Below, piece after piece: positions 12,344-32,000 of a stretch of 32,000 nucleotides of DNA (the stretch's first letter is position 1; every line of letters begins with the position of its first letter). The position numbers and the translations under genes were made by a program. The notes below the pieces were generated by a model. It was not told where the DNA came from, did not search any database, and saw nothing but the letters and a program-made list of their open reading frames with translations. The DNA lies in the NCBI GenBank assembly GCA_035721065.1, contig DASTNJ010000031.1, forward strand, positions 32,368 to 64,367, written 5' to 3'. The stretch comes from Mycobacterium sp. (GTDB taxonomy: Bacteria; Actinomycetota; Actinomycetes; Mycobacteriales; Mycobacteriaceae).

Positions 12344-12697
12344 TCAGGCGCGCAGCGACGCCCCGTCGAGATCGATCCCGATCACCCCGGCGACCCGGTC
12401 GAGGTCGGCGTCCCAGCAGAGCAGGGTGGCGTCATGACGATATGCCACCGCCGCGATCATGCAGCCGACCATTCCGCGCGGGGTGACTCCGGCCTGCCGG
12501 CACCGTCGGTAGATGCGCGTCGCCGCGTCGAAGTCGGCGACCGGATCGAAGGGCAGCAACCCGAAGCGCCGCAGCATGCTGCGCAGCGCGCGTTCCTGCG
12601 TGTCACTTCGTGCGCCGGCCGTCACTTCCATCACCACCGGCTCGGTGACCACCAGTTCGCCGTCGGTGGCGATCAGTTCGGCAAGGCGTTGATCCAC
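12344..12697 (-). pseudogene. VapC-like PIN-domain toxin lacking its N-terminal acidic motif (truncated or frameshifted)
   Basis: The 117-aa ORF (V)DQRLAELIATDGELVVTEPVVMEVTAGARS...FDAATRIYRRCRQAGVTPRGMVGCMIAAVAYRHDATLLCWDADLDRVAGVIG has the middle and C-terminal PIN motifs. The in-frame upstream sequence (..SSGAYDRATGSV) runs into a stop at 12782-12784 before any xxDTS first-Asp motif. No cognate antitoxin ORF lies upstream. Confidence 0.55.
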
Positions 12698-12719
12698 GAC
12701 GCTGCCGGTGGCCCGATCG

Positions 12720-12842
12720 TAAGCCCCGGATGATGGTGAGGTCGGCCATGCCGTGGGGCGGGTCGAAGTCGTCGTCTTGAGTCATCACCGGAAGCGCCCT
12801 TGACGCGGCGATCGCCGCGATCCACGGGTCGTTGAAAGACAT
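12720..12842 (-). pseudogene. Remnant of a second PIN toxin (C-terminal portion only)
   Basis: A different frame of the - strand reads MSFNDPWIAAIAASRALPVMTQDDDFDPPHGMADLTIIRG. This is the typical PIN C-terminus (nDxWIAA...TxDxDF...vI). There is no N-terminal half, and the frame runs on without its own stop into the next remnant. Confidence 0.4.
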
Positions 12843-12901
12843 ATTCACCAGCAGATGTATCATTTCGTCTACATAGCCATCAAATGCGTGGAGATGACAC
12901 A

Positions 12902-13147
12902 ATGTCGCGGACGATGATAGATATTGACGACGACGCGCTGGCCGCTGCCCAGGCGCGGCTGGGGACGTCGACGAAGGTCCAGACGGTGAACGAGGCGCTC
13001 CGACTCGCCGCGACGCCCCAGAGCCAGGAGCCGACGGCGCGATCGGTGATCGCGCTGCTTGCGGACTCCGAGATCGACGACCCTCTGGTGACGTCGGCGG
13101 CATGGCGAAGCGTCCCGCACCTCGAGTCGCGGGGACTGTCCGAGTGA
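12902..13147 (+). CDS. vapB: Type II antitoxin, VapB family (Rv0623-like fold suspected)
   Basis: MSRTMIDIDDDALAAAQARLGTSTKVQTVNEALRLAA... is the classic N-terminus of this mycobacterial antitoxin class. It is about 81 aa, sits immediately upstream of a PIN gene, and follows a low-GC putative promoter stretch at 12843-12901 (TATCAT at 12858-12863). Confidence 0.8.
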   Translation: MSRTMIDIDDDALAAAQARLGTSTKVQTVNEALRLAATPQSQEPTARSVIALLADSEIDDPLVTSAAWRSVPHLESRGLSE

Positions 13148-13191
13148 GTCTGCGACTGATCGGCGCACCGGACACCGCGCCGGCCGGGTTG

Positions 13192-13605
13192 ATGCTCATC
13201 GACACCAGCGCCTATGCGCAGATCAAGCATCATCCGCAAGCTGCCGAGCGGTTCACCGGCCTGGCCGCCCGCGGGCTGCTCGCAACCTGCAACGTGGTCT
13301 CGGCTGAGGTGCTGTACAGCATGGCGGGCATCACCTCGATCCGTGCCATGCGGGCGACCCTCGACGGCCTCTGGTATCTGCCGCTGACGGAGTGGTCCGA
13401 GATGCGCGCGCTGGAAACCCTGGTCAAACTCGCCGAGCGGGGAAAGCACCGGGCCGCCAAGGTAGGCGACCTGCAGATCGCCGCCGTCGCCGAGCAGTAC
13501 CGTGCGACCCTGCTGCACTACGACCACGACTTCGAGGACATCGCGGAGGTCACCGGGCAACCGGTCGAGTGGATTGTGCCGCGCGGAGCGGGCCACGGTG
13601 GTTGA
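13192..13605 (+). CDS. vapC: Type II toxin VapC (PIN-domain ribonuclease)
   Basis: The MLIDTSAY N-terminus carries the first Asp. SAEVLYS carries the Glu, GDLQIAAVAE the third acidic residue, and LLHYDHDFEDIAEV the fourth. An alternative start is GTG 13144, which overlaps the vapB stop (GTGA) and would add 16 aa. Confidence 0.85.
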   Translation: MLIDTSAYAQIKHHPQAAERFTGLAARGLLATCNVVSAEVLYSMAGITSIRAMRATLDGLWYLPLTEWSEMRALETLVKLAERGKHRAAKVGDLQIAAVAEQYRATLLHYDHDFEDIAEVTGQPVEWIVPRGAGHGG

Positions 13606-13898
13606 GGCGAGCGCGGGCGTACATCCGTGGTCGCCGTCCAGAAACCAGCGATCATCGATCCGCTCATGACGCACGTCACAAGCTCATAACACGAGTACGG
13701 TTTGATTTGGCGTGCACGCGAACGACCCCTAACATTAAGAGCTGTTTAAGACCTCAAAAGGCGGGGAGCCCCGGTCGGCGCCGGGCGCCGATGCGGCGGT
13801 CGGTCACCGGCGGGCCGTACACAAGCCACAGATGAGCTAGGCGAGCAGACACACTCGGCGTGCGGGCGCCCGCAGAGTTTGCGACAGGAGAACAAGGC

Positions 13899-23021: not shown

Positions 23022-24590
23022 ATGAGTTTGCTGCTACCACCGGCGCAACTGGCCGTCTCGAGGACCGTGCCGCCGCCCGCCGCAGCGGCAGCCCTGGCGC
23101 GTAAACGTTTGCTGCGCAGGGCGATTGCTGCCTCGGCCATCGGGAATGCGACTGAGTGGTACGACTACGGCGTCTACGCCGTCGTCGCCACCTATCTCAC
23201 CGGTGCGTTCTTCCCGAACACGCTGGGCAACCTCGGCACCATGCTGGGCTTCGCGGTGTCGTTCGTGCTGCGGCCGCTGAGCGGCATGGTGTGGGGCCCG
23301 ATCGGGGACCGCTTCGGCCGCAAACCGGTGCTGATGGCCACCGTGACCCTGATCGCCGTGGCGACCACGCTGATCGGCGTGCTGCCCACCTACGCGGTCG
23401 CCGGCTGGTTGGCGCCGGTGTTGCTGATCGGCCTGCGGGTGGTGCAGGGATTCTCCACCGGCGGCGAATACAGCGGCGCGGCAACGTTCATGGCCGAGTA
23501 CGCGCCCGACGACAAGCGCGGAAAGTACGGCAGCTTCCTGGAGTTCGGCGCGCTGGGCGGATTCGTGGCGGGCAGCGCGGTCGTGCTGACGCTGGAGATG
23601 GCGCTCACTCACGAGGAGATGGCCGCCTGGGGCTGGCGGATCCCGTTCCTGATCGCGCTGCCGCTGGGCATGATCGGGCTGCTGCTGCGCGCCCGAATGG
23701 ACGAGACGCCGGTGTTCACCGAGTGCGCGGCGTGCGAGGTGGTCACCGGGTCGGCGTGGAATCGACTGGTGGACCTGCTGTCCGGCCACACCCGGCCGAT
23801 CCTGGTGATGTTCGCGATGGTCGCCGCGCTCAACGTCATCGACTACACGCTGGTCACCTACCAGCCGACCTACCTGCATGCCGCCCTCGGGCTCGGCGAA
23901 CGCAGCCGCACCACCGTCGTCCTGGTGGGCGAGCTGGTGATGATGGCCGCCATCCCGTTCGCCGGAGCCTGGTCGGACCGGGTCGGCCGCAAACCGCTGT
24001 GGCGCGCCGCGCTGCTGGCGCTGGGCGTGCTGGCGCTGCCGATGTACTGGCTGATGGGGCAGGGAATCTTTTGGGCGATGGCCGGATTCGCGGTTCTGAG
24101 CCTGCTGTTCGCCGCGCCGCTGGCGATGGTGGCGGCGACGTTCCCGGCGATGTTCCCCACGCAGGTGCGCTACGCCGGCGTGGCGATCGCCGACAACGTG
24201 GCCGTCGCCCTGTTCGGCGGCACCGCGCCGATGGTGGCCGACTCGGTGATCGGCAGCACCGGCTGGCAGCTGTTCCCGGCGGCGTACCTGATGCTGGCGG
24301 TGGCGGTCGGTTTGGTGGCGCTGCGGTTCGTGCCGGAGACGGCCGGCTGCTCGCTGCGCGGCACCGACACCCCCGGCGTGCAGAGCGAGCTGGAACGCGA
24401 ACTGGCCGCCTACCCGCCGACCGAGCCGCTGGACGTGGCGGCGCTCGCCGCCGCCGCCCCCGCCCTCACCGCGCTGCCCGCCGAACTCGCGCCGCTGCAA
24501 GCACTTGCCAGTGTGTCGTCGTACAAACACGCACGCACGCGGGTGGGTGGCGTCCGCGGCTCGCGGCAGTGGGCGGCCGCTAGGGCTTGA
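23022..24590 (+). CDS. MFS transporter, metabolite:H+ symporter (MHS; ProP/KgtP-like) family
   Basis: GAGG lies 5 nt upstream of ATG 23022. The 522-aa product has about 12 hydrophobic segments. It shows the MHS N-terminal signature GNATEWYDYGVYAVVA and the MFS loop motifs GPIGDRFGRKP and WSDRVGRKP. The C-terminal tail is Ala/Pro-rich. The 3' end overlaps the embB 3' end convergently by 11 nt. Confidence 0.85.
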   Translation: MSLLLPPAQLAVSRTVPPPAAAAALARKRLLRRAIAASAIGNATEWYDYGVYAVVATYLTGAFFPNTLGNLGTMLGFAVSFVLRPLSGMVWGPIGDRFGRKPVLMATVTLIAVATTLIGVLPTYAVAGWLAPVLLIGLRVVQGFSTGGEYSGAATFMAEYAPDDKRGKYGSFLEFGALGGFVAGSAVVLTLEMALTHEEMAAWGWRIPFLIALPLGMIGLLLRARMDETPVFTECAACEVVTGSAWNRLVDLLSGHTRPILVMFAMVAALNVIDYTLVTYQPTYLHAALGLGERSRTTVVLVGELVMMAAIPFAGAWSDRVGRKPLWRAALLALGVLALPMYWLMGQGIFWAMAGFAVLSLLFAAPLAMVAATFPAMFPTQVRYAGVAIADNVAVALFGGTAPMVADSVIGSTGWQLFPAAYLMLAVAVGLVALRFVPETAGCSLRGTDTPGVQSELERELAAYPPTEPLDVAALAAAAPALTALPAELAPLQALASVSSYKHARTRVGGVRGSRQWAAARA

Positions 24591-27500
24591 TCCGGATCTG
24601 GCCCGGCGACCACCAGCCGGTGCGGGTCGCGGTGCCCAGGTCGATGTCGGCCGGCCGGGCCGCGATGATCGTGTCGTACTGCCGCAGCGAACCCCAGTCG
24701 CGGCCCCAGTCGCGAGACAGGTAGGTCGCCATCACGTGCGCCCGCAGCAGCACGTCGGTGATGCCCAGCAGGCCGCCGTTGACGCCGTCCTCCCAGGTGT
24801 CGGTGTCCTGCTTCTTGGCGTTGTAGTCCGGCGTGATGCGGAACTCGGGAACCTCGAGCACACCGTTGGCGTGCAGCATCGGGTGCTGGCAGGGGAACGC
24901 CATGCCGACCGCCCAGTCCATCAGCACCGGCGTCGACGAGCCGAGGTACTCCTGCACCGACTTGAGCTCGGGAACGCGCGGCGGCGTCACCGCGATCCAG
25001 TCGCGCGGGGTCAGCGACTTGTCCTCGGCGACCACCCGGACCGCGACCGCGTCATGCGGAATCTTCGCCCGCGGGTAGCGCAGGTTGCGCCACATCTTCG
25101 GCCACTCGCCGAACAGGTCGTAGGGCACCAGCCGGCCGCCGGGCACCGGCGCGCCGTCCGGGCCGGGCAGGCCGTACTCCAGTTCCACCGTCTGGCCGCT
25201 GGTGTAGCCCTTGAGCACGCTGAAACCGGAGACGGTGCCGGCGGCGGTCACCACCACCAGCGGGTGCGCGGCGTCCGGCGGCGGCAGCTGATACCAGGCC
25301 GACGTCAGCCTGCTCTGCTGCTGCACGTCGGAGGTGTAGGTGCCGGCCAACGGAACCCGGGCCGGATCCAGCTGGTAGGGCAGCGGCACGGTCGAGCCGT
25401 TGATGCCCGGCGTCTTCAGCTTCGCCGGGGCGTCCCAGTCGTAGTCGGTGCCCGGCTGGGTGATCGTCATCCGCAGCGACTCGGCGGTGACCCGCTCGGC
25501 CACTCCGTTCGGGGTGAAGCCGACCGGGTCCACCCCGCCGAGCGGCCCCAGCGGCCCGTAATCGCCGGGCAACGCGACCAGTGCGCCGTCGTTGGGGTCC
25601 GGTTCGACCAGCACGTCGTCGGCCTGACCGCAGCCGCCGGCGAACGCCCGGATGTTGGCCCATCCGTTGGAATAGGTGGGGTATTCGCGGATGATGCCGG
25701 CGACCATCGACGCGACGCCCACACACACCATCAGCCCGGCCGCCAGCGGCACCGGAGCCGCGGTCACCGCCCGGGCGAGGAAGCCTTCGCCGCGGTCGCG
25801 GGGGGCGAAATGCAGCCAGGCCGCCCACGCCGCAGCGATCACCGACAGCGCGAAAAACATTGTGCTGACGCTGATCCCGGCGATCCGCGGCATCGCGGCG
25901 TTGAACGGCACCCCGTAGCTGGACACGTACCACCAGCCGTTGGTGGTGGCGAAACACAGCGCCAGCAGGAACAGCACCGCGGCGGCGAACGCCATCCGGT
26001 TGCGCGACCAGCGCAGCACCTGGCGGGAGACCAGCACCGTCGTCAGGGCCGCCATCGCCCCGCCGACCGCCGCGAACAGGCCCATGTGGTGCACCCACTT
26101 GGTGGGGGTGAACATCAGGAAGAACATGGTGCCGAAGATGACGCCCATCAGCCGCCACGCCGGCCCGGTGGCCACGCCGGGAACCTTCTTGCGGCGCAAC
26201 AGGATGAACATCGCGGTGAACAGGCACAGCGCGGTGATCAGGAAGCCGAACCGCCGGGACAGGGAGCCGTCCACGGTGGGCAGGAAAAGGTAGTAGTAGC
26301 GCAGGTTCTCGGTGTACCAGGCCTGGCTGGGCCCGATCGCGGTGCGAATCCGGGTGGCCTCGACGACCGCGCGCGCCGTCTGGTCGGCGAGCACCACGGT
26401 CAGGATGACGAAGCCCGCCGCCAGCAGCGGGGCCACCAGCGGCCAGGTGCCGACTTGGCGGTGCCGGCGCACCAGGATCCGCATCAGCGGCCGGCCGGCG
26501 GCCACCAGGGCGGCCACCGCAATCAGGCCGGTGGGCTGGACGCCCAGCGTGAACGCGGCGCAGACGATGGCCAGCGCGGCCGGGGTCAGCCGGCTGGAGA
26601 TGATGGCCCGCTCGATCAGCACGTAGGTGATCAGCGAGCCGACGGCGATGATGCCCTCGGGTCGCAGCCCGTTGTTGAACGGCATCCAGGCCGCCAGCAG
26701 CACGGTGCCGGCCGCCCACAGCGCCGCGCGACTGCCCGCCACCGCCGGGCCGAACCGGGGCAGCACCTCGCGGCTCAGCAGCAGCCAGCAGACCAGCCCG
26801 GCGACCAGGTCGGGCAACCGGATCCAGATGCTCTGGTCGCTGATGTGGGTCATCAGCGCCAGCAGGTTGTAGTACCAGCCGAACGGGTCTTCCGGGCTGC
26901 CGAACCAGCGGAAGTAGTTGCTCATGTAGCCGGCGTGGTCGGCGACCCGGGCCATGCCGAGGATGTAGCCGTCGTCGGAGGAGTTGGCGCCGATCACGTA
27001 CCAGAGCAGGAACGCGAAGATCACCGCGACGTCGGCCAGGCTGAAGAACCGCCAGCGGGCGGGGATCAGCCGGTGCATCCGCCTGCCGTCCATCCGGTCC
27101 AGGCGCCACAGCGCGGCCAGCGCGACGACGGTGGCGGCGATCGCGCCGAGGATCGCGGCCAGCTTCAGCGCGGTCGGCCGGGTGGAGAACCGGGTGTCGA
27201 TGGTGGCGTGCAGTTCCAGGCCGGGCGGGGCCGGGCCGGTCAGGTCGGTGAACACGCCGACGATCTGCGGGCGCAGGTTCGGGTCCTCCCAGCCCGACTT
27301 CTCGGTGAGGCCGGTGAACGTGACGAACGTGCCGGCGTGCGACGAGGTGACGACGATGTCGTCGCAGCCCTTGGCGCCCTGGGTGCCTTCGACTTTGGCG
27401 CGCGGCACGCTGGCCAGCACCACGTTGCGGTCGGTGACGTCCACCTGTCCGGAGGCGACCGTGACGAACAGGCCGTTGAGTTTGGCGTCCTTACCGCCGG

Positions 27501-27873
27501 TCGGGGCGGTGCTGACGATGGTGCCGCCCTTCTCGGGCACCGAGCGGACCACCGAGCACGGCACGGTGACCGTCGCCTCGATCGGGGTCTGCGAGATCAG
27601 CGGCGCGGTCACGCTGGCGAGCTCATTGTGCTGCGGCCAGTTCAGTGCGGCGGTGGTCTGCACCACCGGCAGCAGCGGGGTGGCCACCGACAGCACGAAG
27701 CCGACCAGGCCGGCGATCGCGGCGACCCAGCGGGTGATCTTGAGTTCGTTTGCTGTCACGGGCTGGTCGGTTCGCGACCCGCGGCGTGCGGCTTCGCCGC
27801 CCTTGCGATCGCTCGGCGTCAGGTCGGTTCGCGACCCGCGGCGTGCGGCTTCGCCGCCCTTGCGATCGCTCAC
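24580..27873 (-). CDS. embB: Arabinosyltransferase EmbB (GT-C; ethambutol target)
   Basis: It is colinear with the remembered Rv3795. Shared stretches include [99 protein letters not shown] and the C-terminus SPGQIRIKP. The start is ambiguous. GTG 27873 overlaps the embA stop (GTGA) and gives 1097 aa including 38 repeat-encoded residues. GTG 27759 ([11 protein letters not shown]) gives 1059 aa. Confidence 0.9.
27765..27871. repeat. MIRU-like tandem repeat at the embA/embB junction (2 perfect 50-bp copies, 57-bp period)
   Basis: GGTCGGTTCGCGACCCGCGGCGTGCGGCTTCGCCGCCCTTGCGATCGCTC occurs at 27765-27814 and again at 27822-27871, separated by GGCGTCA. The 57-bp period equals 19 codons. On the - strand each copy reads [16 protein letters not shown] in the embB frame. 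Confidence 0.85.
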
Positions 27874-30800
27874 GGCAGTGCCCGAATCGGTCCGGGGCGA
27901 CTCCAGCCCTTGACGGTCACGGTGCCCTGCTCGACCTCGGCGGCCGGCGCCTGCGCGGCGGGGATCAGCCGGTGATACTGCTCGACGGCGCCCCACTCGC
28001 GGTACCAGTCGTTGTCGAGGTAGGTCGAGACCGTCGTCGTCCACAGCATCGCCTGGGTGAACAGGAACGGCCCGCCGTCCTCGCTGGACTGCCACAGGTT
28101 CGACGACGCCGCGGTCTGCTTGTGGTCGGGCATGATTCGGTACTCCGGTAGTTCGGCGATCCCGAGGTGCTCGGTGAACTGCCGCTGGCAGGGGAAGTTG
28201 GCCGCGGTGGCGATGTCGGCCAAAACCGGGGTCTGCGTGCCGATCAGCTGCTGGAGGGTCTGGGTGACCGGGACCCGCGGCGGGGTGAACGCGATCCACT
28301 GCTCGCTGGACAGGTTCGGGTCGTCGGCGACGATGCGCACCACGTTGGTGCCCGGCGGTGCCCAGGCCAGCGGGAAACGCAGGTTGCGCCAGGCGTTCTG
28401 CGGGCCGGGCTCGATCGGCTCGGACTGGCTCAGCGCGTGGTAGCCGTCGTCGTTGTGCACGCCCCACTCCAGTTTCAGCCGCTGCCCGTACTCAAGCTTG
28501 CCGTCCTCCTTGTGCGACCAGATCGCGCCGGCGGCGCTGAACACCACCAGCTTTCGGTTCGGGGCCGGCGGGGGCAGCTGATACCAGACCGAGGTGGCGT
28601 GCGCGGCGATCCGGTTCTCGTTGTAGCTGCCCAGCACCGGGACGACGGCCGGGTTCAGTCCGAACGGCAGCTTCACCCGGGAGCCGTTGACGCCGGCCGG
28701 CTCGTTGTCGGGGATGCGGCCGCCGGCGGTGCCGGCCGAGTCGCTCTGGTTGGCGCTCGGCTTGTTGGGCGAAGCGTCGGAGTTGACGACACCGGGTTTG
28801 GCGATGACGGCCAGCGAGGTCAGGTCGTCGTCAACGGCGTTGGGGGAGAAGCCGACCGGGTTGACGCCGCCCAGCGGGCCCAGCGCCCCGAACTGCTGAC
28901 CCGGAACCGGTTGCAGCAGACCGACATTGGGGTCCGGCTCGGTGAGCACCTCGTCGGCCATCCCGCAGCTGGTGGGCGACAGGCCCGACGCCAGCGCCTG
29001 CACGTTGGCCTTGGCGATGGTGTACGCGGGGTAGCGGCCGGCGGCGCCCTTGAGCATCGAGCCGACCTCGAGCAGCACCATGAACGACGCCAAAAGCAGC
29101 AGCGGGGTGGACGCCAGGATCCGGTTGCGCCGGCTCGGCGTCACCTCGGTGTGCCCGGCGTAGTCCAGCCGGAAGTGCTGCCAGCCGGCCAGCAGCCCGG
29201 TGATGATCGAGGCCGCCAGGAACATCGTGGTGACCGGGCGGCTGGCGATCACCGGCGGGATGTCGAACCACGGCACCCCGTAGTTGCCGGTGTAGAACCA
29301 GCCGTTGATCCCCGAGGTGGCCCAGGCGACGACGAACAGCAGCGCGGTGACATACAGCGACAGGTTGCGGCGGCTGTGCAGCCCGACTTTGGCGAAGGTG
29401 AACGCGGTGACCGCGCCCAGCGCGCCGGCCAGGCCGGCGAACGCGCCGAACTGCACCGCCCACTTGGTCGGGGTGAACGTCAGCAGCAGCAGACCGAGCG
29501 CGGTGCTGCCGACCAGCCGCCACAGTGGGCCGGTGGCCAGGCCGGGCAGCCGGCCGCGGCGCAGCAGCATCACCAGCAGGCCGAACACGCAGAACAGCAG
29601 GGTGAGGATGGCGAAGCGGCGGGCCATCGACCCGTCGACGTTCTCCTCGACGGTCAGGAAGTAGTAGCGCAGGAACTCCTGGTACCAGGCGATCGTCGGG
29701 CCGACCTTGTATTTGATCCGCCACGACTCGGCGACATTGGCCACGGTCTGCGCGCGGAACACCACCACGATGATCAGCGAGGCGGCGGCCGCCAGCACCG
29801 CCAGCGGCGGCAGCATGCCGTCCTGCGGGCGGCGGCGGCGGATGATCTGCGCGATCGGCCGGGCGCCGGCCAGCAGCGGGGCGATCGCGATCAGCCCCTG
29901 CGGCGCCAGCGTCGCCGACAGCAGCGCGGCCACGATGGCCGCGGCGGCCGGCACCAGTCGCCGGGTGGCGATCGTGTGCTCCACCAGCACCCAGGTGACC
30001 ATGACGCCCAGCGCGATCAGCGGTTCGGGCCGCAGCCCGTTGTTGAACGGCAGCCAGGCCGCGATGAAGACCGCGCCGGCTGTCCAGGTGGCCACCCGGT
30101 TGGCCGCCAGGCCGCCTTTGCCGGGGCCCAGCCGGGGGAGCACCGAGCGGCTGATGATCAGCCAGCAGGTCATGGCGGCGGCGGTGGCCGGCAGCCGCAT
30201 CCACACCCCGTCGGTGCTGACCTGCGCCAGCTTCGCCAGCAGGCTCTGGTACCAGTCGAACGGGGCCTCGGTGGTGCCGAAGTACCGGTAGTAGTTGGCG
30301 ACGTACCCGGCCTTCGGCGCGATCCGGGCGATGGTCAGGTTGTAGCCGTCGTCGCTGGAGGTGGCGCCGACGATGTGCCACAGGGCCAGGGTGCCGACCA
30401 CCGCGGCGTCGACGATCCAGTGGGCTTTGCGCCAGCGCTGCCACCGGAGCTGCCAGCTGCGGCGTGTCTTTCGCCCCGAGTGCGAATCCAGCACCGCCAG
30501 CGCGGCCGTGGCCAGCACCACCGCGAGCACACCCAGCGTCATGACCCCCGCCTTGAGGGTGGTGGGCGCGGTGATGAACCGGGTGTCGACGTCGATGCGC
30601 GCGCTCAGCCCCGGCTGCGGGGGCACCTTGAGCTCGGTGAAGATGCCGCCGATCTGTGGCTTCTTGTCGATCGGCAGGGTTTTGGCCGCACCGGGGATGC
30701 CGACGAAGTCGGCGCCGACCTCGCCGATGGTGGCCCACAGGTGCAGCTGGCTGCAGCCGCCGCTCTGCACCGCCGGGCGGGGTGCGGCCGCGGCCACCGA

Positions 30801-31163
30801 GTCCCGGAACGCCGCGAACACCACGTCTTTGGTGGCCCGCACGAACAGCCCGCTCTTGGTGGCGTCCACCCCGCCGGCCGGGATGGTGGACAGCACCAGG
30901 CCGCCGCCGGCGGGCAGGCTGGCCACCGCCGTGCAGGGGATGGAGATGTCCAGCGCCCGTGGCGCGCCGGACACCAGCGGAGCGGTGACGTCGCCGATGT
31001 TGCCGTCCGGCGTGGTTTGCTGCGGCCACAGGATGGCTGCGGTGGTCTGCCTCACCGGCAACAGCGGCGCGGCGGCGCACAGCAGCACCCCGGCGATGCC
31101 CGCGACGACGGCGACCAGCCGGGCGATCCGGTAACGGGACCGCTGGTTTCCGTCGGGGGACAC
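27870..31163 (-). CDS. embA: Arabinosyltransferase EmbA (GT-C)
   Basis: GTG 31163 gives [25 protein letters not shown] (M. tuberculosis EmbA: [21 protein letters not shown]). It is colinear throughout ([95 protein letters not shown]) and the C-terminus PGPIRALP is identical to my memory of Rv3794. Confidence 0.93.
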
Positions 31164-31171
31164 GAGGGTCG

Positions 31172-31177
31172 ATGTTA
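31172..31177 (-). promoter_or_regulatory. Candidate -10 hexamer TAACAT for a leaderless or short-leader embA transcript
   Basis: The reverse complement of 31172-31177 is TAACAT (TANNNT). Its 3' end lies 8 nt before GTG 31163. No Shine-Dalgarno sequence precedes the embA start. Confidence 0.3.
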
Positions 31178-31236
31178 TGCGACGGCGCAGGTGCTAGTGG
31201 GACCCGGCGTTGGGGCGCGTGGTGTCACGTCTGCCT

Positions 31237-31304
31237 TCGTCACACCCGCCCCACCAGCCTCCAAAAATTGACCATAGAAACAATTGCCCGCCTCTGAGCG
31301 ACAC
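31237..31304. repeat. Left inverted repeat of the cassette
   Basis: TCGTCACACCCGCCCCACCAGCCTCCAAAAATTGACCATAGAAACAATTGCCCGCCTCTGAGCGACAC. The inner 21 bp (31284-31304) are a perfect reverse complement of 31826-31846. Confidence 0.85.
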
Positions 31305-31305
31305 C

Positions 31306-31445
31306 GAGGGGTCGGCGGATCATGCGGTTCATCCGGTCGGCGGATGGTGCGGTTCATCCGGTCGGCGGATGGTGCGGATCACCCCGTCGGTGGATGGTTC
31401 GGATCACCCGGTCGGCGGAAAGCGCCACTTAGCCCGTCGGCGGGG
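31306..31445. repeat. Six phased 25-bp direct repeats, each containing an ATCCG-N5-CGGAT-type dyad
   Basis: 15-mers start at 31306, 31331, 31356, 31381, 31406 and 31431. They read GAGGGGTCGGCGGAT, ATCCGGTCGGCGGAT (twice, perfect dyad arms), ACCCCGTCGGTGGAT, ACCCGGTCGGCGGAA and AGCCCGTCGGCGGGG. The full 25-mers at 31321-31345 and 31346-31370 are 23/25 identical. Confidence 0.85.
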
Positions 31446-31788
31446 CACCGGGGTTGTTCGGGCCGGATCGGCCACCACGCAAGCTGTCGGCTTCGTCGCG
31501 CAGCGCCATCACCCGCTGGTGGATTCGGTATTCGGTTGCGCGCGGCATCTGCGCCGGCCCGTAAAGCGCACGCCCGCGCCGGTACACCCGGCCGTATCGT
31601 CGCTCCCAGCGCAATGCGTCCGATATTGCCTTCGACGCTCGCCCGTTGACGCAAAAGCCATGGTGGGCCAGGGCTTCGATGAGTTCGGCGATCGTCGCGG
31701 TGCCGTGCTGGAACAGCTGCATGGTGAGTACGTAGCGCAGTTCGATGCCGCGGAGGCACCGACGCTGCCTGTTGTTGGTTGTGTTCAT
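31429..31788 (-). CDS. Small (119 aa) putative winged-helix / HTH DNA-binding protein, family not recognised
   Basis: ATG 31788 has GAGGG about 7 nt upstream. Third codon positions are predominantly G/C. The core LTMQLFQHGTATIAELIEALAHHGFCVNGRASKAISDALRWERRYGRVYRRGRALYGP looks like helix-turn-helix plus wing. The tail is basic. Confidence 0.6.
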   Translation of the reverse strand: MNTTNNRQRRCLRGIELRYVLTMQLFQHGTATIAELIEALAHHGFCVNGRASKAISDALRWERRYGRVYRRGRALYGPAQMPRATEYRIHQRVMALRDEADSLRGGRSGPNNPGAPPTG

Positions 31789-31825
31789 GGTCCGACCCTC
31801 TAACGCGGGTCTGACATCGCGGCGT

Positions 31826-31893
31826 GTGTCGCTCAGAGGCGGGCAACTGTCTCTGTGGTCGATTTTCGGGGGAGGGTGGGGCTGGAGTGACGA
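31826..31893. repeat. Right inverted repeat of the cassette
   Basis: GTGTCGCTCAGAGGCGGGCAACTGTCTCTGTGGTCGATTTTCGGGGGAGGGTGGGGCTGGAGTGACGA. Its reverse complement aligns without gaps to 31237-31304 with 10 mismatches. Confidence 0.85.
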
Positions 31894-31904
31894 CTGCCGG
31901 CAGC

Positions 31905-31976
31905 GGGTCGGCGCGGCGCGGCGGGTCGGCGCGGCGCGGCGGGCGGGTCGGCGCGGCGCGGCGAGCGGGTCGGCGG
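31905..31976. repeat. GC-rich tandem repeat, unit GGGTCGGCGCGGCGCGGC (3 full copies plus 1 partial; periods 18/22/22 bp)
   Basis: Copies lie at 31905-31922, 31923-31940 and 31945-31962, with a partial copy at 31967-31976. This is directly outside the right inverted repeat. Confidence 0.8.
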
Positions 31977-32000
31977 AGGACGCCGCGCCTACCGGGACCG

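Follow-up and report, generated by a model that had tools for sequence, protein, structure and literature searches.

A small winged-helix gene between inverted arms in the embC-embA spacer of a Mycobacterium sp., and its relatives at other mycobacterial sites

The element described here is a small gene between long inverted repeats (arms), located directly upstream of the arabinosyltransferase gene embA in a 32,000-nt stretch of DNA from Mycobacterium sp. (contig DASTNJ010000031.1; the whole stretch is hereafter called the window). Several known systems invite comparison. REPIN-RAYT systems, said to have been described by Nunvar et al. in 2010 and by Bertels & Rainey in 2011, combine doublets of repetitive extragenic palindromic (REP) sequences with a REP-associated tyrosine transposase. 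MPME1 and MPME2, ultra-small mobile elements of mycobacteriophages, were reportedly described by Sampson et al. in 2009. In Bacillus subtilis, the Ter sites IRI and IRII lie next to the rtp gene, which encodes RTP. Mycobacteria also possess TRIT, a conserved palindromic motif at gene ends that is restricted to these bacteria and has 147 copies in M. tuberculosis, for which a binding factor was proposed (PMC3152330).

Among known systems, the architecture of the element resembles REPIN-RAYT most closely. Like REPIN-RAYT, it has a vertically inherited gene with a short conserved sequence repeated in inverted orientation on either side, and both the gene and the repeats are under long-term purifying selection. 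Inverted doublets that lack the gene, with short spacers and mostly at gene 3′ ends in intergenic regions, recall REPIN-RAYT as well, and come here from metagenome contigs. Unlike in REPIN-RAYT, the protein is predicted to be a winged-helix binder of ~100 residues and not an HUH/Y1 nuclease, given the winged-helix model and the lack of a Pfam match. Its copy number is low: in the ~0.86 Mb that flank the 80 related genome loci used for all comparisons of core, context and covariation below, no further core was detected other than beside the gene. Several paralogous genes are also possible per genome. We lean, with some reserve, towards an autoregulated DNA-binding module of mobile ancestry that is now fixed at many sites, its embC-embA position being incidental. 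Literature searches on the motif, on inverted repeats between embC and embA and on actinobacterial miniature inverted-repeat transposable elements (MITEs) uncovered nothing that describes either the protein family or its motif. The module is apparently undescribed and widespread in mycobacteria.

The unit and its winged-helix gene

A repeat search of the window recovered the two arms (31237-31304 and 31826-31893) as inverted repeat I1; each arm has 68 nt, complementarity is 85%, and 521 nt lie between them. The arms share an identical inner 21 nt: TTGCCCGCCTCTGAGCGACAC at 31284-31304, found again as its reverse complement at 31826-31846. The 19-nt core pattern had two exact matches in the window, both in the arms, against a chance expectation of ~0.42 matches even with three mismatches tolerated. 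The unit and its immediate surroundings comprise the following features.

31826-31893, minus strand: upstream arm, distal to embA, with a variable outer part and a conserved inner core (inverted repeat I1)
31826-31846, minus strand: conserved core within the upstream arm, with minus-strand sequence TTGCCCGCCTCTGAGCGACAC; candidate site for binding by the encoded protein, on the evidence of an exact match, the family consensus and the covariation with residue 52
31789-31825, minus strand: leader from the core to the ATG, putative operator/promoter region, with GATGTCAGAC at 31809-31818 and AGAGGG at 31796-31801; read from a 72-locus alignment
31429-31788, minus strand: gene of 119 aa for a predicted winged helix-turn-helix (wHTH) with a long C-terminal helix; open reading frame (ORF), homologues, AlphaFold2 model and dN/dS (ratio of nonsynonymous to synonymous divergence) as evidence
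31310-31443, no strand: 25-bp tandem array, of 4.4 good copies and further degenerate ones, that lies past the stop codon and before the embA-proximal arm
31237-31304, plus strand: downstream arm, proximal to embA; core, 31284-31304; terminal motif GTCACACCCGCC, 31239-31250
31224-31235, plus strand: additional copy of the arm terminal motif, GTCACGTCTGCC, just outside the arm, from comparison with the family terminal motif
31161-31186, minus strand: start codon of embA, GTG at 31163-31161, with the motif CGTCGCATAACATCGA ahead of it, external to the unit and kept across the emb-site loci

An earlier note on this DNA, made from the sequence alone, had proposed a discrete unit delimited by inverted repeats with a perfect innermost 21 bp, and both proposals were confirmed. 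It had also counted six phased 25-bp repeats. The array exists, with four to five clear copies plus degenerate ones instead of six clean copies: Tandem Repeats Finder reported 4.4 good copies at 31310-31419 (89% matching), and the repeat search traced a 25-nt register over 31286-31443. Derivation of these repeats from the arms was considered and set aside, as the likeness seen by eye was no better than chance, and they are treated simply as a variable zone. The 5-bp target-site duplication (CTGCC) that the note had suspected at the flanks did not hold. Its left copy lies within the extra terminal motif GTCACGTCTGCC beside GTCACACCCGCC, its right copy is half of a palindrome, CTGCCGGCAG, and no such repeat occurs in the metagenome contig L204, which has the unit at the same embC-embA site. 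A GC-rich tandem repeat at 31903-31975 (period 18-22 bp, about three copies, unit GCGGGTCGGCGCGGCGCG) adjoins the distal arm externally; the window ends at 32000.

The 119-aa ORF is preceded by the Shine-Dalgarno-like AGAGGG, 7 nt before its ATG, and its GC contents at the three codon positions are 0.66, 0.53 and 0.79. Homologues of the protein numbered 535, all named ones being from Mycobacteriaceae. The gene was found at no fewer than 492 genomic loci (at least 492) in one-genome-per-species collections of Mycobacteriaceae, and 997 cluster representatives were obtained at 50% identity, with a distant one from a metagenome-assembled genome (MAG) of Aquihabitans. Among orthologues within one genomic context, dN/dS ranged from 0.10 to 0.27 at synonymous divergences (dS) of 0.6-1.3. 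The small gene, which the earlier note had proposed from its ribosome-binding site and coding bias, is real and under purifying selection.

The window protein matched no family in Pfam (E up to 1), NCBIfam or PHROG, and a profile search with its family found no match among the sequences of the PDB. Its AlphaFold2 model is confident (pLDDT 86) and has the order beta, alpha1, alpha2, beta, alpha3, a beta-beta wing and a long helix (residues 83-104). The best fold matches were Pex/PadR, MarR, ArsR/HlyU and B. subtilis RTP; in Foldseek, Pex gave E 7e-3 and TM 0.54 and a phage PadR TM 0.55, and RTP chains aligned over 94-109 alignment columns with TM ~0.45. We can therefore confidently model the protein as a winged helix of ~100 residues with a dimerisation-type C-terminal helix, in line with the helix-turn-helix plus wing that had been suspected from the sequence. 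The invariant residues K53 and S56-E62 fall within the recognition helix alpha3 (residues 51-64). No serine or tyrosine recombinase domain was found by Pfam, in the model or among the fold matches.

With PadR/Pex-type and AbiEi N-terminal wHTH autoregulators the module shares the fold and, putatively, inverted sites near the gene start. Unlike in these regulators, its protein belongs to no Pfam or NCBIfam family and lacks both a partner toxin and a ligand domain; its sites bracket the whole gene and are common to all paralogues, and the module is dispersed. Membership in the PadR family (PF03551) was rejected, the fold alone being similar and no sequence match being found in Pfam, NCBIfam or PDB. 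Marginal sequence matches to the AbiEi wHTH were obtained with PADLOC (E 0.003, in five of 25 members), and an AbiEi antitoxin was likewise rejected, with no second domain and no conserved partner gene across contexts. RTP and its Ter sites offer a similar parallel, with a small wHTH protein that has a long C-terminal helix and an asymmetric inverted site pair beside its own gene. In contrast to RTP, the module has many paralogues at scattered chromosomal sites, emb included, and nothing in the genome fragments covered links its sites to the replication terminus. Scattered paralogues, one of them next to emb, which we take to be near the origin from M. tuberculosis gene order, make an RTP-like replication terminator unlikely.

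Arms, contexts and the embC-embA site across mycobacteria

At nearly all of the 80 loci, the consensus core TGCCCGCCTC-NN-AGCGACAA occurs in inverted copies on both sides of the gene. The upstream core lies ~45-60 nt before the gene, and the second, inverted core lies at or just past its 3′ end; in many homologues the downstream arm encodes an LSLRGGQ C-terminal tail. Core positions are 90-100% conserved despite saturated synonymous sites. Many mycobacterial arms reach outward for ~55-75 nt up to a terminal motif, GTCACAYCYGCCAC, that recurs among them, and the 68-nt repeat of the window is therefore a family feature. The outer arms are mostly decayed, with a median within-locus identity of 0.58-0.67, and near-identical arms (54-74 nt, ~94%) were found in a few loci (L204, L004, L076 and L010). 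Concerted evolution of the outer arms, with arms more alike within than between loci, is likewise confined to a few loci.

The leader between the upstream core and the gene is conserved in sequence and spacing. Its layout in the alignment is AGCGACAAC-N5-9-gaTGTCrnAC-N-gTGCGACgGT-N7-ATG, so that it holds more GCGAC/GTCGC-like half-sites at a fixed distance from the ATG. Residue 52 is located in the first turn of the recognition helix, in the motif G-R-x-S-K. Where S52 is replaced by G, P or N, the arms end in AGCGA[AT]T at all seven loci, which belong to two clades (contexts E and I); the loci that keep S52 have AGCGAC[AT] (~73 of ~73). Distant homologues, that of Aquihabitans included, retain only the AGCGAC half, as inverted pairs beside the gene. 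Because residue 52 covaries with the inner end of the core, we read the arms as the putative binding sites of the protein itself. The covariation, together with the invariance of helix and core, is in terms of sequence a case of protein-site coevolution, and the arm cores are very probably bound by the encoded protein. The earlier note had taken conservation at the inner end as atypical of insertion-sequence or MITE termini and more in keeping with a protein-binding or recombination site; the family-wide conservation of the core and the covariation at residue 52 support the protein-binding reading.

Arm copy number varies at some loci. At L043 (6275-6525) the downstream arm is amplified to four tandem 77-bp units, each with a complete core, and multiple tandem arms were also present at L077 and L032, which suggests that unequal exchange between arms may be common. 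The short-read contigs L001, L008, L018, L046, L055, L063 and L078 end within a few hundred bases of the unit, and L001 begins inside an arm. The arms and tandem repeats may break assemblies, or the population may be heterogeneous at the locus.

At least ten recurrent syntenic intergenic contexts are represented among the 80 loci, with gene names read off representative sequences: ppx and kdpE-kdpD; a GntR gene and a large decarboxylase gene with efp; oxidoreductase genes and fadB; an acyl-CoA synthetase region of Mycolicibacterium; a ROK kinase gene and rplJ; a carboxylic acid reductase gene and gabT; an MBL hydrolase gene and a phosphatase gene; embC and embA; a DUF456 region; and a relA-side site. 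Protein clades track genomic context. Each site is therefore an old acquisition, passed on vertically since then, and the clustering of copies by site together with saturated synonymous divergence indicates that there was no recent burst. Some genomes have two or three copies. Orientation is constant in contexts A, B and C (17, 9 and 11 loci) and split two against two in context I. The arms do not always enclose the gene: both lie upstream of it as a close hairpin in context D, and they lie downstream of it in context J.

A scan of metagenomes with the core gave at least 120 loci. Among the matches listed, at least 81 were gene-less doublets (an arm, a spacer of 17-80 nt and an inverted arm) and at least 15 had the gene. 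The doublets are intergenic, between convergent (19), tandem (19) or divergent (7) genes and often 30-60 nt from stop codons. Searches of the adjoining six-frame ORFs with hmmsearch revealed no hidden homologue. At least some doublets belong to Mycobacterium, as the DnaE1 encoded on contig L143 is 93% identical to that of M. malmoense, and at L113 and L119 a doublet occupies the position where M. komossense has a gene-bearing unit. The doublet on L143 (a Mycobacterium sp. contig; 690-746) has long outer arms and lies ~600 nt upstream of dnaE1. No core was present within 23.5 kb around dnaE1 in L212, which is labelled M. tuberculosis.

No target-site duplications were found at the loci with long arms, the youngest-looking copies included. 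Neither protein nor DNA searches of plasmid and phage collections gave a match, and tblastn against the 50,697 records of the phage collection found none at E up to 1. An origin from MPMEs, prophages or plasmids was therefore no longer considered. The module resembles MPMEs in its size class (~0.4-0.65 kb), in short inverted repeats around one small ORF and in its mycobacterial setting. It differs from them in having no protein or DNA similarity in the phage records and no PHROG family, and in its far longer arms with a conserved internal core and its exclusively chromosomal copies.

At the embC-embA site itself, the gene next to the unit (27870-31163, minus strand) encodes an Emb arabinosyltransferase (Pfam PF04602, PF14896 and PF17689). 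Its nearest relatives are annotated as arabinosyltransferase A, and embB follows at 24580-27870, so that the unit does lie directly upstream of embA as previously proposed. Related emb sites were compared as follows.

Window, Mycobacterium sp. MAG: unit present, oriented as the emb genes
L204, metagenome contig: unit present, same orientation
L066, Mycobacterium sp. MAG: unit present, same orientation
L068, M. sinensis: unit present, same orientation
L205, M. minnesotensis: unit present, same orientation
L207, M. hiberniae: unit present, same orientation
L208, M. arupensis: unit present, same orientation
L070, M. kumamotonensis: unit inverted, with a third arm and 26-bp repeats
L203, MAG: ORF truncated to 65 aa, both arms intact
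L202, metagenome contig: reduced to one degenerate arm
L206, M. algericus: nothing but stubs of the outer arms, next to a VapBC-like pair
L209, M. heckeshornense: unit absent, spacer filled by a peptidase gene

Eight of the nine copies have the same orientation, M. kumamotonensis being the exception, and embA is 73-77% identical across the unit-bearing sites. The unit lies ~50 nt upstream of a conserved embA upstream motif, CGTCGCATAACATCGA, which directly precedes embA in L066, L068, L070 and L202-L209 whether the unit is present or not, with small variants in L207-L209. From this conservation, the CGTCGCATAACATCGA region is probably the promoter region of embA itself, outside the unit. Unrelated tandem repeats separate the protein domain from the embA-proximal arm in L070, L205 and L207, and the 25-bp array of the window is one such case. 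In a neighbour-joining tree (88 residues), the copies of the window and L204 did not group with the Mycolicibacter emb copies; the resolution of the tree is too low, and we therefore make no claim of independent insertions at the emb site. The embC-embA spacer is an insertion hot spot. In M. algericus it holds a pair of PhdYeFM-type antitoxin and PIN toxin genes (L206, 1662-2362), and in M. heckeshornense a gene for a 632-aa S15 peptidase (L209, 540-2438).

Proposed mechanism and alternatives

The family, its arms and contexts, the orientation flips, the erosion series, the purifying selection and the protein-DNA covariation are shown by the sequence data, and from them we infer binding, autoregulation, a barrier effect and a mode of past spread. 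The protein would bind both arm cores (TGCCCGCCTC-NN-AGCGACAA, the inner 20 bp of each arm) as well as the GCGAC/GTCGC-like half-sites in the short leader, and this binding would control its own transcription. The bound protein would probably also act as a barrier in the intergenic region. Long ago the module would have been dispersed to at least ten unrelated intergenic sites and then inherited vertically at each. Its arrival in the embC-embA spacer may date back to the common ancestor that Mycolicibacter shares with the lineage of the window, or earlier. A single flip in M. kumamotonensis could have arisen by exchange between the arms, and erosion in other relatives would have left the gene truncated, or reduced the unit to one arm or to remnants of arms. 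That the unit lies upstream of the embA promoter region would be incidental, with no dedicated control of emb; as the unit is found at many sites away from emb, it is not an emb-specific regulator.

Several points weigh against this autoregulated module. Gene-less doublets with spacers of 17-80 nt, mostly at gene 3′ ends, are unusual for the regulon of a transcription factor. A regulator's operator normally lies upstream only, and sites that bracket a gene are unusual. The covariation at residue 52 comes from only two or three independent lineages, and a sigma-70 scan identified no promoter. The two variable positions of the core agree between the arms in 31 of 65 cases against 8.7 expected by permutation, an agreement that RNA pairing or gene conversion would produce as well. 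The ancient dispersal mechanism left no target-site duplications, and no transposase was found. Some effect on embAB may also exist.

Other explanations of the arms concern movement or inversion of the unit. One of low probability is a new kind of minimal self-propagating element of Actinomycetota, consisting of the arms and a winged-helix factor that binds their ends; with no catalytic protein of its own, it would use host recombination or replication and leave the doublets behind. If so, it would be the functional counterpart of REPIN-RAYT with another kind of protein. An active non-autonomous element of the MITE kind, with the regulator as a passenger and a transposase encoded elsewhere that recognises the 68-bp arms, is unlikely. 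The long arms do resemble terminal inverted repeats in their recurring terminal motif GTCACAYCYGCCAC and conserved subterminal core, and, as with MITEs and non-autonomous insertion sequences, the copies are intergenic, at no fewer than ten (at least ten) unrelated sites, and form an internal-deletion series down to arm-loop-arm, gene-less doublets included. The near-identical arms at L204, L004, L076 and L010 and the contigs that break at or beside the unit would fit as well. However, target-site duplications are missing even from the youngest-looking copies, neither a cognate transposase nor recent near-identical copies were found, no transposase is encoded in the window, and no arm lies away from the gene in the flanks. 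The copies cluster by site at saturated synonymous divergence, none was found on a plasmid or phage, the conserved part is subterminal, and the unit carries a selected gene, with ORF and core under purifying selection at fixed loci. Of the three options in the earlier note, the mobile cassette finds support in an evolutionary sense only, on the strength of the ten or more sites, the deletion derivatives and the doublets; present activity is unlikely, given copies as old as dS 0.6-1.3 and the lack of a target-site duplication, transposase or plasmid or phage copy. Its second option, an invertible switch in which the arms recombine, the gene turns round together with any promoter within the segment, and embAB expression changes as a result, is highly improbable, and a frequently flipping switch is unlikely. 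As in Hin/hix invertible segments, inverted repeats bracket a small gene directly upstream of an operon, and both orientations exist among relatives: the segment of M. kumamotonensis is inverted relative to M. sinensis and seven other loci, and context I is evenly split. The arms that are more alike within than between loci are also what arm exchange would give. These flips, which are between species and at two sites, emb and context I, lend the switch weak support. Against it, orientation is invariant in contexts A, B and C and in eight of nine emb-site copies, unlike in Hin/hix segments; the protein has a plain wHTH fold with no recombinase domain, and no recombinase is encoded by the large ORFs of the window, although one might be encoded elsewhere in the genome; embA retains its own conserved upstream motif outside the unit; and the unit also lies between convergent genes, where there is no switch target.

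Action at the RNA level is rather improbable. Co-transcribed arms would pair, as a duplex around the ORF or a hairpin in the doublets, and serve as a terminator, processing site or stabiliser. The minus-strand RNA of 31230-31900 does fold with the arms paired (z-score -7.2), the agreement of variable core positions between arms is consistent with pairing, and the doublets are enriched between convergent genes and lie ~30-60 nt from stop codons. TRIT provides another example of a conserved palindromic gene-end motif in mycobacteria (PMC3152330), and the module is like it in placing a palindrome of conserved sequence at gene 3′ ends. Unlike TRIT, the module core has no extra copy in the flanks and is absent from the 23.5 kb of the genome labelled M. 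tuberculosis; identity with TRIT was rejected on copy number, which sets the two apart here rather than a sequence comparison. Pairing alone does not account for the conservation of the core sequence itself, for the specific retention of the AGCGAC half by distant homologues or for the covariation of the inner end with a protein residue. Complementarity of the outer arms is usually lost, no Rfam family was found at the window region or in eight doublet-bearing contigs, and the context D arms, both being upstream of the gene, are unable to enclose its mRNA. The remaining option of the earlier note, a lineage-specific regulator that binds upstream of embA and tunes arabinosyltransferase expression, is very unlikely and was abandoned, as most family members are nowhere near emb. 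The closeness of the unit to the embA upstream motif and its retention at the emb site over deep divergence would favour such a role. Yet just three of the 80 loci adjoin emb, modules with the same core lie beside kdpE, fadB, rplJ, gabT and other genes, and the emb-site unit is lost or eroded in L202, L203 and L206 and absent from L209 with embA intact. Membership in MITEs, MPMEs, invertons, PadR or AbiEi was rejected on the defining features of each group.

Significance and neighbouring genes

The module adds a large protein family that matched no entry of Pfam, NCBIfam, PHROG or the PDB sequences. Mycobacteriaceae contain at least 492 loci of this family, and other Actinomycetota have relatives of it. 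The module also pairs this family, putatively, with a 20-bp DNA motif, whose predicted specificity determinant is residue 52 against the bases CA or AT. The motif is a new palindromic repeat for mycobacteria, in which the inventory of palindromic elements is poorly understood. In the M. terrae complex and related lineages the module lies immediately upstream of the embAB promoter region and hence next to a drug target: embAB encodes the target of ethambutol, and in M. tuberculosis resistance mutations occur in the embAB promoter region. The arms and tandem repeats may add to assembly breaks beside the unit, and they could serve as lineage markers.

Besides embA and embB, the window holds glf, glfT2, ubiA, a cutinase gene, esterase genes of the kind that includes mycolyltransferases, and genes with domain make-ups like those of fadD32, pks13 and accD4. 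These gene names, and the identity of the region as a mycobacterial cell-wall cluster, are assumed from M. tuberculosis gene order. No transposase or recombinase was found among the large ORFs of the window, as the earlier note had also stated. An ORF with a PIN domain (VapC-like; 12344-12781, minus strand) lies between the cutinase gene and the AMP-binding gene read as fadD32; relative to the presumed M. tuberculosis order, it appears to be an insertion into an otherwise conserved cell-wall cluster. The small ORFs beside it (12603-13674) had no Pfam match. A gene for a major facilitator superfamily (MFS) or sugar transporter (23022-24590, plus strand) is located between the carboxyl-transferase gene read as accD4 and embB, a position at which M. 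tuberculosis presumably has different genes.

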